Shown here piece after piece: positions 1 to 47,401 of a DNA stretch of 62,600 nucleotides. Under the pieces are notes generated by a model. It had not been told where the DNA came from, ran no database searches, and saw only the letters and a list, made by a program, of their open reading frames with translations. Each line of letters opens with the position of its first letter. Within the stretch, counting starts at the first letter, position 1. Source of the DNA: an uncultured Syntrophales bacterium (GTDB taxonomy: Bacteria; Desulfobacterota; Syntrophia; Syntrophales; JADFWA01). Both the position numbers and the translations under genes were made by a program. Location: positions 1 to 62,600 of the forward strand of contig CAYVXX010000004.1 of NCBI GenBank assembly GCA_964454305.1, read 5' to 3'.

Positions 1-267
1 TCTCCTTGAATGTATTTTGCTATTTTTATTTCCGTTTTTGAAAGCATCGTGTGTTAAGGATAAAAAGTTTAAAGTGCCTAAAGTGAGCTAAAGTGCCTAA
101 AGTTGAAGAATGCGCTTTCAGCGCAGCTTGTTTTAATTTTCCCTTGTATCACAAACAAATATTTCTTGACAATTTTTTTTCATGCGTATAAAAACTCGGA
201 GGCGGACAGGTGCTTTGCTGATAGGGGGGCGCCTAAAAAAGATCCGTAAATACGAAAGGAGGCATAA

Positions 268-3459: not shown

Positions 3460-4188
3460 ATGAAAGGTGTTGTTTTGGCAGGTGGTCTGGGGAGCAGGAT
3501 GCATCCACTGACAAAAGTTACCAATAAACATCTTCTCCCGGTATACAGGGAACCGATGATCTATTATCCGATCAGGACTCTGGTTAATGCCGGTGTAGAT
3601 GAGATATTGATAGTAACCGGTGGGAATAACGCCGGTGATTTTCTTAAACTCCTGGGTAACGGCAAGGAGTTTGGCCTTAAACACATAAATTACACATACC
3701 AGGAAGGGGAGGGAGGAATAGCGGCAGCCCTGAGCCTCGCGGAATTCTTTGCGGATAACGGGAAAATCATCGTTGTTCTTGGCGACAATATTATTGAGAA
3801 TAATATCAAAAAAGCGGTTGAGGCTTTCAAAGAACAACAGGAAGGGGCCAGGATAATGCTGAAAAAGGTTCCTGATCCTCAGCGGTTCGGGGTGCCTGTT
3901 TTTGATGGGGACAGGATTGTCGGCATCGAGGAAAAGCCGTCGGTTCCAAAATCTTTTTATGCCGTTATTGGTATTTATATGTATGACACCAGGGTCTTCG
4001 ATTTTATAAAGACGCTTAAGCCATCGGAGAGGGGAGAGCTGGAAATTACAGATGTTAACAACTTCTATATCGGGGAAGGAAAGATGAAGTGGGATGTCCT
4101 CGATGGCTGGTGGAGTGACGCCGGGACATTCGAATCTCTTCAATATGCGGGGAATATGGTGTCTAAAACGGGGGCAAACAAAATATGA
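3460..4188 (+). CDS. Sugar-phosphate nucleotidyltransferase (glucose-1-phosphate thymidylyltransferase-like, short form)
   Basis: 242 aa. N-terminal GVVLAGGLGSRMHPLT nucleotidyltransferase signature. Confidence 0.8.
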   Translation: MKGVVLAGGLGSRMHPLTKVTNKHLLPVYREPMIYYPIRTLVNAGVDEILIVTGGNNAGDFLKLLGNGKEFGLKHINYTYQEGEGGIAAALSLAEFFADNGKIIVVLGDNIIENNIKKAVEAFKEQQEGARIMLKKVPDPQRFGVPVFDGDRIVGIEEKPSVPKSFYAVIGIYMYDTRVFDFIKTLKPSERGELEITDVNNFYIGEGKMKWDVLDGWWSDAGTFESLQYAGNMVSKTGANKI

Positions 4189-4640
4189 TTGAAGGTGTGA
4201 TGATTAAGAAATTGAAAGTGATACCGGATGAACGGGGGAGGTTGATGGAAATACTCCGCCGGGACGACGAGATGTTCGTTGGATTTGGCCAGGTGTATAT
4301 GACAACTGCCAATCCCGGTGTCGTGAAGGGGTGGCATTATCATAAAAAACAGTATGACAACATGACGGTTGTCAAGGGTATGATGAAGATCGTCTTGTAC
4401 GATAGCCGCGATAATTCCAGTACCTATGGTGAAATAAATGAATTCTTTGTCGGGGAGCACAATCCTTTGCTTGTTCATATCCCGCCATATGTGTATCACG
4501 GCTTTAAGTGTGTTTCTATTGAGGAAGCCATTGCGGTTAATACTCCAACAGAGGTTTACAATTATGATGAACCGGATGAATTCAGGGTAGACCCCCACAA
4601 CAATGATATTCCATACGACTGGAACAGAAAAGACGGATAA
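4185..4640 (+). CDS. RmlC-like cupin (dTDP-sugar epimerase/isomerase-like)
   Basis: 151 aa. Small cupin with KGWHYH, analogous to RmlC RGLHYQ. Overlaps the upstream nucleotidyltransferase gene by 4 nt. Confidence 0.65.
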   Translation: MIEGVMIKKLKVIPDERGRLMEILRRDDEMFVGFGQVYMTTANPGVVKGWHYHKKQYDNMTVVKGMMKIVLYDSRDNSSTYGEINEFFVGEHNPLLVHIPPYVYHGFKCVSIEEAIAVNTPTEVYNYDEPDEFRVDPHNNDIPYDWNRKDG

Positions 4641-12941: not shown

Positions 12942-13005
12942 AGTATAAGAAAGGTAAGCTGTCAGCTATCAGCTATCAGCATTCAGCAAAGGGAAAGGCT
13001 TTTAG

Positions 13006-15264: not shown

Positions 15265-15306
15265 TTCAAAGTTCGGAGTTTCACGTTTGGGGGAATGGAA
15301 TTACTG

Positions 15307-15436
15307 TGACAGTCTCGTAAAAAGTCTCAAAATGTGTTATTTGTCATGCTGAACTTGTTTCAGCATCTAATTCAGTAAGTTAGAGACCCTGAAATAAATT
15401 CAGGGTGACAAAAGCTGACTTTTTACGAAGCCATCA
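15307..15436. mobile_element. Family-B MITE-like element, copy B1
   Basis: Inverted termini TGACAGTCTCGTAAAAAGTC (15307-15326) and GACTTTTTACGAAGCCATCA (15417-15436). Two internal hairpins. No ORF. Confidence 0.5.
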
Positions 15437-15484
15437 ACTTTAAACTTTGAACTTTGAACTCGAAACTTTAAACAGGTATTCATC

Positions 15485-18914: not shown

Positions 18915-19490
18915 ATGAAAAATATTTATATCGTTCTTTTACATTATCCTGTTTATAATAAAAAAGGAGATGTTATTACAACCGCGGTTACCAATATGGA
19001 CATACATGATATATCCAGATCCGCGAAGACTTACGGAATAAAACGGTTTTATATAGTTACGCCGGTTGAAGAACAGAGAGAGTTGGTTAGACGGATAATA
19101 CGTCACTGGCAAAGGGGGTATGGCGCTTCTTATAATCCATTGAGGAAAGAAGCGATGGATATTGTCGACTTAAAAGGTACCCTCGAAGAGGTATTGGAAG
19201 ATATCTCGGCAGAAACAAAAAATAAGGTCAGGCTTGTGCTAACGGGTGCAGGGCTTAGGGGAAAGTTGACAAAATTCGCAGAATTGAAAAGAAGTATGGC
19301 GAAAAGTCAGAATCCCTGTCTTCTGGTTTTTGGAACAGGTTGGGGCATTGTCAGGGAAGTGATTGATGATGCCGACTTTTTCCTTGAACCGATCGAAGGA
19401 CCATCTAATTATAACCACCTGTCTGTTCGATCTGCAGTAGCCGTCGTATTGGATAGATTGTTAGGAGAGAGAGGAGTTAGAAAGAAATGA
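18915..19490 (+). CDS. Putative SAM-dependent RNA methyltransferase-like protein (uncharacterised family)
   Basis: 191-aa ORF between trmD and rplS, overlapping the rplS start by 4 nt. The family assignment is from memory of similar proteins annotated this way and has not been verified. Confidence 0.5.
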
Positions 19491-19834
19491 ATAGAGTTGA
19501 GATGCTTGAAAAAGAACAGATTAGATTGGATATTCCTTATTTTAAATCAGGTGATACCGTTAAGGTGTATGCGAAAATTGTCGAAGGCCAGAAAGAGAGA
19601 ATACAGGTTTTTGAAGGAGTTGTAATAAGGAAAAGAGGGGGAAGTAACCGGGCAACTTTTACTGTGAGGAAAATGTCATATGGTGTAGGCGTTGAAAGAA
19701 CTTTTCCCCTTCATTCGCCTATAATAGACAGGGTCGAGGTTGTAAGAAAAGGAAAAGTTAGGCGTTCCAGGCTGTACTATCTGAGAGGACTTAGAGGCAA
19801 GAAGGCAAGGATAAAAGAAGCCGATAGAAGGTAA
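19487..19834 (+). CDS. rplS: 50S ribosomal protein L19
   Basis: 115 aa. [16 protein letters not shown]...[10 protein letters not shown] is the canonical L19 sequence. Confidence 0.97.
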
Positions 19835-19836
19835 GA

Positions 19837-20084
19837 AAGTGAGCTAAAATGTCTAAAGTGAACTAAAGTGCCTAAAGTTGACAGTCTCGTAAAAAGTCTC
19901 CTTAGCTTGTCATTTCGAGTGAAACGAGAAACCCTTTAAACGTAACATACTTAAAAGATAAGATTTCTCCCTATAGTCGAAATGACATATTCGTTGAATT
20001 TCACTTTTTACGAGCGCATCAAAGTTAAGGGGTTTGATAATTTTAACTTTAGCTCACTTTAGGCACTTCAAACTTTAGGCACTT
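19837..20084. repeat. Composite palindrome: family-C word arms flanking family-B element B2 (19879-20021)
   Basis: The left arm (19837-19878) and right arm (20045-20084) are inverted arrays of xxxTAAAGT words. B2 termini: TGACAGTCTCGTAAAAAGTC and CACTTTTTACGAGCGCATCA. Confidence 0.6.
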
Positions 20085-20087
20085 TTA

Positions 20088-20696
20088 ATGACTATGTACA
20101 GTTTTGAACTGAGTGCTCATCGTAGCGGCTTTCAGGTTGTGGCTGGTGTTGATGAGGCGGGGAGGGGCCCTCTGTCAGGTCCTGTTATTGCAGCGGCCGT
20201 CGTTCTTCCCCCAAGCTATAAGAATGATGAAATTCGTGATTCAAAACAACTTTCTCCCAAAAAGAGAGAAAGACTATACGAAACAATAAATAATGATGCC
20301 CTTTCAGTTGGGTTAGGTGTTGTAGAATCGTCTGTCATTGATTCCATAAATATTCTTCAGGCAACATTAATGGCAATGGAAGAGGCGGTTACAAATCTTT
20401 CCCTTGCCGTCGATTATCTTTTAATTGATGGTATCAATAATATTAACGTACCCATCCCGCAACAGGCCATTCGCAAAGGAGATTCCCTAAGTATTTCAAT
20501 AGCTTCAGCTTCTATTATTGCCAAGGTGTCCAGAGATAAAATAATGGAGATATATCATCATCAATTCCCGCAGTATAATTTTCTTAAAAATAAGGGGTAT
20601 GGTACTCTTGAACATCGCGAGGCCATAAAGAAATATGGGTGCTGTAAAATTCACAGAAGATCTTTCAAGAGGGTAAAGGAATACCTCTATTTGTAA
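20088..20696 (+). CDS. rnhB: Ribonuclease HII
   Basis: 202 aa. VAGVDEAGRGPLSGPV catalytic motif. Confidence 0.95.
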   Translation: MTMYSFELSAHRSGFQVVAGVDEAGRGPLSGPVIAAAVVLPPSYKNDEIRDSKQLSPKKRERLYETINNDALSVGLGVVESSVIDSINILQATLMAMEEAVTNLSLAVDYLLIDGINNINVPIPQQAIRKGDSLSISIASASIIAKVSRDKIMEIYHHQFPQYNFLKNKGYGTLEHREAIKKYGCCKIHRRSFKRVKEYLYL

Positions 20697-20701
20697 AACG
20701 A

Positions 20702-21070
20702 ATGGCTAATACTAAGATTCAGACAGGTAAACTGGGTGAAAATATTGCGGCTGATTACCTGGAAAAAGAAGGGTACAGAATTGTTCAAAGGAATTACAGG
20801 TGCGTTTTTGGAGAGATTGATATTGTTGCAATAGATAGAAATGTCATAGTATTTGTAGAAGTCAGAAGCAGGAGATCGGCTAAATACGGTTATCCGCAGG
20901 AGTCAGTTGGGCATAGCAAGAAAATGAAAATTTCAAAAATAGCATTGAATTATTTGAAGGAAAAGCAGTTCCAGGACTGCCGCGCAAGATTTGATGTTGC
21001 GGCGGTTAAAATTTTACCTGAGGGCAGCGAGGTAAAACTTATTAAAAATGCTTTTGATCTGATGTATTAA
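20702..21070 (+). CDS. yraN: YraN-family endonuclease (UPF0102)
   Basis: 122 aa. GEIDIVA...VFVEVR motif. Conserved position after rnhB. Confidence 0.88.
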   Translation: MANTKIQTGKLGENIAADYLEKEGYRIVQRNYRCVFGEIDIVAIDRNVIVFVEVRSRRSAKYGYPQESVGHSKKMKISKIALNYLKEKQFQDCRARFDVAAVKILPEGSEVKLIKNAFDLMY

Positions 21071-21073
21071 ACT

Positions 21074-21263
21074 TGACAAGTTCGTAAAAAGTTTTTTCAG
21101 AGCGAATTTAAGCATTTTGGGAAAAAGATGCTGATAGTGACCGGCGTTAAGAAAATCTAACTGTTTGAGTGCATAAGCACGAGTTTTAGATTTTTAGCCG
21201 GGCAATAACAGCATTCCCAAAATGGTTCTGAGCGAAGAAAAGTGACTTTTTACGAGCGTATGA
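21074..21263. mobile_element. Family-B MITE-like element, copy B3
   Basis: Termini TGACAAGTTCGTAAAAAGT and GACTTTTTACGAGCGTATGA. Internal 10-bp inverted repeat CATTTTGGGA/TCCCAAAATG. No ORF. Confidence 0.5.
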
Positions 21264-26190: not shown

Positions 26191-26570
26191 TAACTAAATA
26201 TTTCGAGGGGTATCTCCTCAAAGTGAGACCTTTTTCAGAAGTCTCGACAGGTGGTGAGTTGAAAGGGGCATCAGCAAGTTTAAAATCAGCGATGCCCTTT
26301 ATTTAAATAAAGGTCTAATCAGGTGCCTGTCTGATGAAGAAGGGTCTTTGTCTGCAATATTTGCGTTTTTTGTGTATGTGCGGGTATCGCCCCAAACAAT
26401 AAGATTTAGTTTGAAATGTGAAATGAATTGAAGTGCCTAAAGTTAAGGATTTTAATCAGTCAACTTTAGCTTACTTTGTACCCTTTTTGAACTTTTTTGG
26501 TTATCCGCCTCAGGCAGATCCGTATCAGGTTTAAAATGTATGTGCATTTTTCTGGAATGGGACATTTTTC

Positions 26571-30925: not shown

Positions 30926-30973
30926 AACGAGTTCCGAGTTCAGGGTTCAGCGTTCAGAGTGAGGGAATAAAGC

Positions 30974-34117: not shown

Positions 34118-34120
34118 AGA

Positions 34121-34251
34121 GCATTCAGCTATCAGCCGCCAGCTTTCAGCAAAAAAAACAAAAGATCAATCGGATAGGGGTAGCCCCGTATGGTTACCCC
34201 TACTTTTTTATTTTGCTGATCGCTGAATGCTGAATGCTGAATGCTGAATGC
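34121..34251. repeat. Family-D heptamer-word palindrome enclosing a terminator
   Basis: Left arm GCATTCAGC TATCAGC CGCCAGC TTTCAGC. The right arm includes (GCTGAAT)x4 at 34222-34249. Confidence 0.65.
34176..34214. terminator. Bidirectional rho-independent terminator between the merR-like and PxxKW genes
   Basis: AGGGGTA...TACCCCT stem with an A-run upstream (34150-34158) and TTTTTTATTTT downstream. Confidence 0.6.
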
Positions 34252-34257
34252 TTGTAA

Positions 34258-47210: not shown

Positions 47211-47401
47211 TTTGAACTGAACAGCAAGCGAATAAAAAACAAACAATTTCCTTACCCCGATAAACGGGATAAGTCCCGCTAAAGGGGATAAATCCCACTA
47301 AAGGGGATAAATGCGTTAACGAAATTATTTTCTGGCAGAAAATAATTTCTAACTTACTAAACAGTCGGAGATTCCCCGCAACTTGTTGCGGGAAGCTTCA
47401 A
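47211..47401 (+). repeat. Family-A composite hairpin element, long form (A4)
   Basis: TTGAACTGAACAGCAAGCG. Three tandem units of about 19 nt (CCCnnTAAAnGGGATAAnT). 13-bp stem 47320-47348. GGAGATT-CCCCGCAACTTGTTGCGGGA-AGCTTCAAT. Confidence 0.7.

Follow-up and report, generated by a model that had tools for sequence, protein, structure and literature searches.

A nested palindrome between rplS and rnhB in a Syntrophales genome, very probably a mosaic of two selfish repeats stacked by transposition

The genes for ribosomal protein L19 (rplS) and RNase HII (rnhB) of an uncultured Syntrophales bacterium are separated by a spacer of 253 nt (positions 19835-20087, between the rplS stop at 19834 and the rnhB ATG at 20088), which consists of inverted repeats nested one within the other. 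A first-pass annotation of the stretch of DNA containing it (the window, 62,600 nt of contig CAYVXX010000004.1) had read this arrangement as three concentric levels of dyad symmetry and had offered two possible origins, an element inserted into the centre of a pre-existing palindrome or a family of elements that targets hairpin loops. Our analysis indicates that, in all probability, transposition has stacked two unrelated selfish repeats here, so that the spacer is a mosaic of them and as such ordinary selfish DNA. The outer repeat is a palindrome built of AAAGT-containing words; the inner one is B2, a 141-nt MITE (miniature transposable element with inverted repeats) of a family here termed family B, which lies in the palindrome between two copies of the hexamer AAAGTT. 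The genome to which the window belongs (G000, the window being its contig C4) comprises 2.53 Mb in 202 contigs with 44% G+C. Orthologous spacers were sought in 40 relatives and cut between anchored rplS and rnhB, and order-wide counts refer to a sample of 151 genomes from 62 genera.

The most direct evidence is provided by the orthologous spacers. In two genomes the palindrome stands without the element: G004, of the same genus (p-distance over rplS+rnhB, the measure used throughout, 0.028), has a 103-nt spacer with the full palindrome and a 15-nt loop, and G007, of another genus (0.169), has a 117-nt spacer with the full palindrome and a homologous loop, its sequence ...GCCTAAAGTT|AGGGATTTTGG... 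being exactly the predicted empty site. In G000 the palindrome is filled by B2, and in G002 (same genus, 0.039; 476 nt) by a 368-nt composite family-B element, which lies at the hexamer used by B2, is oriented alike and is likewise flanked by duplicated AAAGTT, its core being unrelated to that of B2. The spacers of two further members of the genus are short, amounting to 33 nt in G003 (0.062), where the last two right-arm words are left, and to 17 nt in G001 (0.114), where only the last word, ACTTTAGGTACTT, is left; because what remains corresponds to the far end of the right arm, an older palindrome is more likely to have been deleted here than to have been gained. The last right-arm word is kept in six of the six orthologous spacers. 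Arms and core thus do not always occur together, for which reason the proposal of an element inserted into a pre-existing palindrome stands, although the point of entry is where the left arm meets the loop, and not at the centre of the loop. The G002 spacer (contig C169) presents a further level of nesting of its own, in that its family-B element holds a long palindromic insert (GTCATTGCGAGGAGC...GCTCGCAATGAC).

All the features described in the first-pass annotation, namely the outer arms, the inverted termini and the inner inverted repeat, were found where it had placed them. The outer arms are connected by two perfect 13-nt pairings and a 23-nt stretch at 87% complementarity, so that they do pair, but they are imperfect inverses, the left arm being a variant of a dispersed repeat. 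The termini TGACAGTCTCGTAAAAAGTC and CACTTTTTACGAGCGCATCA are inverted relative to each other, and the inner inverted repeat (I4) reaches 24 nt at 79% complementarity. The three concentric dyad levels are likewise all present, but they belong to two elements only, the second and the third both being parts of the MITE. The MITE is itself a long palindrome, in which the 19-bp terminal inverted repeats enclose a pair of subterminal hairpin modules in inverted orientation, and three concentric dyads result because a palindromic MITE has been added to an outer palindrome. The predicted fold of the spacer RNA is a single nested hairpin, with an energy of -75.1 kcal/mol compared with -49.0 +/- 4.4 kcal/mol in shuffles (n=200; z -5.9), none of the 200 being equally stable. 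The fold energies are additive, the palindrome alone accounting for -35.2 and B2 alone for -36.2 kcal/mol, and the pairing of the arms is present in the minimum-energy folds of the G000, G002, G004 and G007 spacers.

The inner layer belongs to a numerous family. The core TCGTAAAAAGT of the termini occurs 96 times in G000 against 2 occurrences expected, and the genome holds 194 half-sites matching TTGAYRNNYTCGTAAAAAGT and 52 paired copies with spans of 104-311 bp. The terminal inverted repeat common to the copies has the 19-bp consensus GAYRNNYTCGTAAAAAGTC, the element proper extending over GAYRNNYTCGTAAAAAGTC...GACTTTTTACGARNNYRTC; a reversed control pattern for this repeat gave 0 matches in every genome. 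The sequences flanking the paired copies carry a 6-nt repeat, exact in 21 of the 52 and with at most one mismatch in 34, compared with a mean of 1.2 exact (maximum 6) and of 8.0 with at most one mismatch (maximum 15) in a permuted-partner control, and no signal of a target duplication was found among them at 7-9 nt. A 2-nt duplication outside TTGA...TCAA, apparent in 27 of the 52 copies, was considered and rejected in favour of 6 bp, the outer dinucleotides co-varying with the opposite flank. Among the 25 copies with outer dinucleotides other than TT/AA, 10 keep the exact 6-nt match and, because the deviant ones still match the opposite flank, the outer dinucleotides are part of the target and not of the element. 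The target consensus is AAnnTT, 6 bp and A/T-rich, and the duplicated hexamers are diverse (AAATTT, ATAATT, AATACT and others).

No coding capacity and no transposase were found between any pair of family-B ends in G000. Core similarity distinguishes three main groups of copies, with 24, 17 and 9 members; close 141-nt relatives of B2 in G000 are located at C7:33060, C37:21252 and C137:3822, and modules of the form GTCAYYYC...GRRRTC, equivalent to hairpin module 1 of B2, are present in other family members. The terminal-repeat motif extends over much of the order, being present in 79 of the 151 genomes and 45 of the 62 genera and reaching ~200 half-sites in a single genome, and it occurs also in named records from Desulfobacteraceae, Desulfobulbia, Desulfatiglans, Syntrophaceae, Desulfosarcina cetonica, Desulfogranum marinum and metagenome-assembled genomes (MAGs) of Nitrospirae/Thermodesulfovibrionales. 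A literature search for the letters of the terminal repeat returned primer coincidences only and no description of family B, and the family of MITEs and parent insertion sequence appears undescribed in the literature searched. Copies of the B2 type that are 87-90% identical to the window copy occur in other families in which rplS is only 73-76% identical (G008:C56:7584-7726 and G034:C6:55319-55445); on these identities, a recent horizontal spread of the B2 subfamily is suggested. We also observed that G000 C22:13952-14026 retains only GACAAGTGCACATC, corresponding to the two extreme MITE termini fused, at the site where G002 C27 has a full family-B MITE within a palindrome; the G000 sequence is a remnant left by internal deletion, and some of the palindrome 'loops' may be decayed MITEs.

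Family B is a MITE family in the true sense, and its parent is an IS1182-like insertion sequence. In a screen of DDE_Tnp_1 loci from five MITE-rich relatives, exact inverted terminal repeats were encountered ~1.9 kb apart, enclosing an open reading frame (ORF) of 595 aa (G123, G075), and protein searches found homologues of this transposase in 21 of the 151 genomes. Complete elements of 1890-1924 bp, bounded by GAYRNNYTCGTAAAAAGT and encoding a transposase of 564-597 aa, are present in G123, G096, G075, G021 and G068. The 6-bp duplication of the parent is readable at one complete and one decayed copy only, the former in G021, where it is exact (ATTGTT), and the latter in G001, of the window's own genus, where the ends are ATATTT/ATCTTT; G002 has a partial parent copy at a contig end. 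By far the best model for the transposase is NF033551 (IS1182; 155 bits, E 3e-45, positions 29-487 of 488), and the domains DUF772, DDE_Tnp_1 and DDE_Tnp_1_6 each score above the Pfam cut-off. Elements of the IS1182 family are ~1.3-1.95 kb long, and the parent resembles them in its 1.9 kb, its single transposase, its domains and its best NCBIfam model; to judge by its score, the element is either remotely related to this family or a sister group of it. The DDE_Tnp_1 and Y1 loci of G000 are without terminal repeats and DDE_3 is absent from this genome, integrase-type (rve) loci have no paired family-B ends, and the loci from the scan of named genomes include no end pairs more than 450 bp apart. 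A pair of ends spaced by 4 kb in a named MAG was taken up as a candidate autonomous element and rejected, there being only ordinary genes inside.

The outer palindrome, for its part, is a copy of a dispersed unit of ~100 nt, made up of a 41-44-nt arm, a loop of ~18 nt and the inverted arm. In G000, GTGCCTAAAGT occurs 73 times against 1.3 expected, and the program TRF detected 167 tandem arrays of period 6-11, which constitute 0.22% of the genome and represent many word families; an inverted partner accompanies 34 arrays. The 18-nt loop type AAGGATTTTrrTCAkTT is repeated in paralogous palindromes and, because arms and loop both recur between copies, it is the palindrome as a whole (arm, loop, arm) that is dispersed as a unit. 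Abundance of the word AAGTGCCTAAAGT is restricted to two families within the order, the window's own (7 of 7 genomes, 2-144 copies) and one other (31 and 95 copies), its counts in the remaining families of the 151-genome sample being at the level of the control pattern. Dispersed intergenic inverted hairpin doublets, such as these palindromes are (each alone folding at -33 to -40 kcal/mol), bring to mind the REP (repetitive extragenic palindromic) sequences and their doublets, the REPINs, and hence a REP-associated tyrosine transposase (RAYT) as mobiliser. This candidate is unsupported. No cognate flanked Y1 gene was found, since arm words flank 0 of the 26 RAYT-like loci for Y1 transposases examined across six genomes: the 4 Y1_Tnp loci of G000 are bordered by different repeats or truncated at contig ends, and within ~1.5 kb of the 22 loci in five word-rich genomes the arm words are absent.

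In the sequence of events that we propose, an ancestor of the bacterial family already carried a ~100-nt palindromic repeat between rplS and rnhB, into which the 141-nt MITE then integrated at AAAGTT, the last word of the left arm, with duplication of these 6 bp; the DDE transposase that mobilised it would probably have been supplied in trans by an IS1182-like insertion sequence of ~1.9 kb. In the arm, AAAGTT is found only as the word adjoining the loop, the other words reading AAAGTG. The arm tip would then have been chosen as the only match in the arm to the A/T-rich AAnnTT target, and recognition of a hairpin would be unnecessary. It is in this latter respect that the proposal differs from the idea that family-B elements recognise the cruciform or hairpin tips of palindromic repeats and prefer to insert there, in the manner of REP-specific insertion sequences; we regard that idea as very unlikely. 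That REPs serve as targets is documented for ISPpu9, ISPpu10, ISPa11 and ISRm22 (PMC1525189), IS1397 being another insertion sequence that lands in them, nesting is recurrent here (G000 C4:19880; G002 C12, C27 and C169; G004 C68), the same orthologous hexamer has been filled by different subfamily members in G000 and G002, and 6 MITE ends abut strict arrays where 1.1 would be expected from random noncoding positions. However, arrays contain 158 of the 3,705 noncoding AAnnTT sites in G000, and the apparent 5-fold excess is gone once AAnnTT is conditioned upon, 5 ends being observed at arrays and 8.3 expected; the other nested cases (G002 C12, G002 C27, G004 C68) are likewise as many as the availability of the hexamer predicts. 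Over 90% of copies, including the majority of the 52 paired ones, are situated away from word arrays, the duplicated hexamers are diverse, and the insertion considered here is at the arm-loop junction, where the hexamer lies, and not in the loop. The hairpin-loop targeting offered in the first-pass annotation as the second possible origin is, on these counts, unsupported.

Against the stacking of two unrelated repeats by transposition one must set several observations. An autonomous copy was not found in G000 by protein search of the 202-contig assembly, and for this reason mobilisation in the G000 lineage is something we infer; the score of the parent transposase is under the NCBI equivalog cut-off of 270 bits for IS1182; and the loop of the G004 palindrome (AATAATGTGATCCAT) is unrelated to the loop common to G000, G002 and G007 and has no paralogue in G000. 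Most pointedly, the same hexamer is filled in G000 and in G002 by different subfamily members, for which a rough chance estimate, assuming ~100 elements, ~3,700-4,400 sites and uniform use, is about 3%. A local hot spot or in-situ replacement of the core is possible behind this double occupancy. One version of the latter would have G000 and G002 inherit a single ancestral insertion, with the core later exchanged through terminal-repeat homology or transposase-mediated replacement and the element lost from G004; we consider this doubtful, if by no means negligible. The common hexamer, orientation and AAAGTT duplication agree with it, independent double occupancy is a priori rare, and in-place decay of a family-B element is seen elsewhere (G000 C22:13952 against the full copy of G002 C27), but the cores and subterminal regions of the two elements are unrelated right up to the 19-bp repeats, G004, the nearest by distance, has neither a footprint nor a second AAAGTT, and a tree of rplS+rnhB gives no firm branching order for G000, G002, G004 and G003. 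Another reading, that arms, termini and core form a single co-evolving composite element, mobile or functional, merits almost no credence. The fold is indeed continuous and very stable, and a similar layout exists at 15265-15475, yet G004, G007 and the paralogues have arms and no core, most copies of the core have no arms, the phylogenetic ranges of the two parts differ, and the 6-bp duplication borders the core and is internal to the arms; the existence of empty sites already contradicts it. Finally, the stacking of selfish repeats might be generalised, in a speculative and rather unlikely extension, by supposing the AAAGT-word palindromes to be a new RAYT-independent mobile palindromic repeat, whose apex would be a landing pad shared by IS1182-type MITEs, a 62-nt element (described below) and others, building mosaics like those of bacterial interspersed mosaic elements (BIMEs), and in which the double occupancy would be due not to chance but to a real hot spot at this site or to MITE cores having been exchanged in situ.

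A different question is whether the structure has any bearing on the expression of the adjacent genes. The 17-nt spacer of G001 implies that rnhB is co-transcribed with rplS, and in such a co-transcript the large stem would reach to 3 nt before the rnhB start codon. A rival idea, namely a selected regulatory RNA (attenuator, terminator or mRNA stabiliser) which sets the rplS:rnhB ratio and for which the repeats have been co-opted, seems improbable to us. REP and Correia-type repeats influence mRNA stability and processing, a hairpin ending so close to the rnhB ATG would occlude the initiation region, and the last word together with the ATG is kept in all six genomes. However, a spacer varying from 17 to 476 nt among genomes that are 3-17% diverged in rplS+rnhB means that the structure is not conserved; Rfam covariance models gave two chance-level matches only (E > 5) over 19000-21000; a scan of the + strand of the spacer detected no sigma-70-like promoter and no intrinsic terminator, which would call for a short GC-rich stem running straight into a U-tract, the base of the present stem being A/U-rich; and the arrays and MITEs have no convincing or strong bias in gene context. 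We infer that the structure is tolerated rather than selected and, as far as the predicted fold can tell, the stem would at most dampen rnhB translation or read-through and protect the 3' end of rplS. Directly before the rnhB ATG, ACTTTAGGCACTT followed by 1-3 nt is present in all six genomes, even in those without the palindrome (window 20072-20087); the AGG within it, 8-9 nt upstream of the ATG, may be a weak ribosome-binding site.

Both layers have counterparts among known repeats. Bacterial MITEs derived from DDE insertion sequences include the Correia/CREE elements of Neisseria, ERIC/IRU and RUP (reviewed in PMC3184786). B2 is like them in being short, non-coding and bounded by terminal inverted repeats and in folding into a long hairpin, and family B, as they do, duplicates a target of fixed length, numbers tens to hundreds of copies between genes, has a parent insertion sequence whose ends match its own, and shows both empty and filled sites among relatives. 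It is unlike the named bacterial MITEs in its IS1182-like parent, in its A/T-rich 6-bp duplication AAnnTT and in the possession of subfamilies with unrelated cores and identical ends. The outer layer resembles REP, BIME and REPIN sequences (for REPINs see PMC3116915) as a dispersed intergenic hairpin doublet with a short conserved spacer that forms mosaics with other repeats, and the mobile elements found inside AAAGT-word palindromes parallel the insertion sequences hosted by REPs. The arms, at 41-44 nt A/T-rich and composed of tandem 9-10-nt words, are unlike the GC-rich REP stems of 20-40 nt; nor, unlike REP and REPIN sequences, do the words flank any of the 26 Y1 loci, and nesting here needs the hexamer only. 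Intergenic tandem arrays of short words, often inverted and capable of forming hairpins, with several word families per genome, also characterise the short tandemly repeated repetitive (STRR) heptamers of cyanobacteria, reportedly described by Mazel et al. in 1990. The present palindromes differ from these in phylum, in their words and in a period of 9-10 nt (other G000 arrays are heptameric), and in the dispersal of whole arm-loop-arm units.

A striking structure in a ribosomal-protein operon can thus be explained without a new mechanism or regulatory device, and the natural series of remnant, empty, filled and differently filled spacers illustrates how layered palindromes arise by transposition into repeats. 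The analysis also defines a family of MITEs and insertion sequences, characterised by 19-bp ends, a 6-bp AAnnTT duplication and an IS1182-like parent, which is widespread in Desulfobacterota MAGs. On the practical side, such repeats break assemblies and yield spurious ORFs, so that masking them would improve annotation, and the four natural spacer lengths upstream of rnhB make up a test set for the effects of insertions on the expression of a distal gene. The gene order around the spacer is KH-domain protein, rimM, trmD, SPOUT-like ORF, rplS, spacer, rnhB, yraN and rsmI, and the coordinates of the features are collected in Table 1.

Table 1. Features of the rplS-rnhB spacer and related repeats in the window
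Feature	Coordinates	Strand	Basis
rplS (ribosomal protein L19), upstream gene	19487..19834	+	115-aa ORF; 85-96% identity to anchor orthologues
Left outer arm, xxxTAAAGT word array, 9-10 nt period, last word gives AAAGTT target	19836..19879	+	TRF: period 9, 4.6 copies; pairs with 20045-20085; same arm without element in G004 and G007
Left target-site duplication AAAGTT	19874..19879	.	Genome-wide flanking 6-nt repeats
B2, 141-nt MITE of IS1182-like family	19880..20020	+	194 half-sites, 52 paired copies; orthologous empty sites; ~1.9-kb insertion sequence with same ends in relatives
B2 left 19-bp terminal inverted repeat GACAGTCTCGTAAAAAGTC	19880..19898	+	Fits consensus GAYRNNYTCGTAAAAAGTC; same motif bounds transposase gene in G123, G075, G021, G068, G096
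B2 subterminal hairpin module 1 GTCATTTCGAGTGAAACGAGAAA, left half of innermost inverted repeat	19908..19931	+	Repeat I4
B2 subterminal hairpin module 2, inverted copy of module 1	19964..19987	-	I4 partner of 19908-19931
B2 right 19-bp terminal inverted repeat, reverse complement GATGCGCTCGTAAAAAGTG	20002..20020	-	Inverted-repeat and motif searches
Right target-site duplication AAAGTT	20021..20026	.	Duplication analysis and orthologous spacers
Original loop of outer palindrome AAGGGGTTTGATAATTTT	20027..20044	+	Homologous to G002 and G007 loops; also loops of paralogous palindromes at C2, C12 and window 26445-26461
Right outer arm, exact copy of dispersed 41-44-nt arm repeat	20045..20085	-	Ends 2-3 nt before rnhB ATG; window 20043-20086 recurs with 100% identity in G000, G002, G007, several times over
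rnhB (RNase HII), intact downstream gene	20088..20696	+	202-aa ORF; 98% identity to G004 orthologue
B1, family-B MITE adjoining AACTTTR word array	15308..15435	+	Window search
B3, family-B MITE, 188-nt subfamily, between yraN and rsmI	21075..21262	+	Window search
Short paralogous palindrome without element, conserved loop type AAGGATTTTAATCAGTC	26431..26480	.	Paralogue in window
AAAGT-word palindrome without element, 12-nt loop	28489..28573	.	Paralogue in window
AAAGT-word palindrome without element, 16-nt loop	29384..29453	.	Paralogue in window

Some further observations concern the word palindromes and arrays at large. A 62-nt element with two GC hairpins (TAATGTACACGCCTTCGGCGCGGTTAAATTCGAAACAGGCTGCGCTGAAAGCGCATTTTTT) occupies the centre of at least 10 AAAGT-word palindromes, among them those at window 104-165 and at G000 C2:41011-41081, C12:37227-37297, C107:333-403 and C46:9682-9743; conserved sequence (AAAGCCGCAACCCCA...) often flanks its copies on the outside, a hint that they belong to a larger composite repeat, and inserts other than this element are also present at palindrome centres. 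Further word arrays lie in the window at 12957-12987, 30929-30960, 34120-34252 and 47256-47312, and involve AGCTATC, GAGTTCA, inverted AGCTTTC/TGCTGAA and a 19-nt CCCGCTAAAGGGGATAAAT repeat. Elsewhere in G000, two RAYT-like Y1 genes (C140:2656-2994 and C171:304-633) have flanking inverted repeats of their own, GGGACAGCGCCC...GGGCGCTGTCCC and AAAGGGGACAGATTTATTT...AAATAAATCTGAACCCCTTTT, and these two loci have the look of distinct REP/RAYT systems that bear no relation to the AAAGT words.

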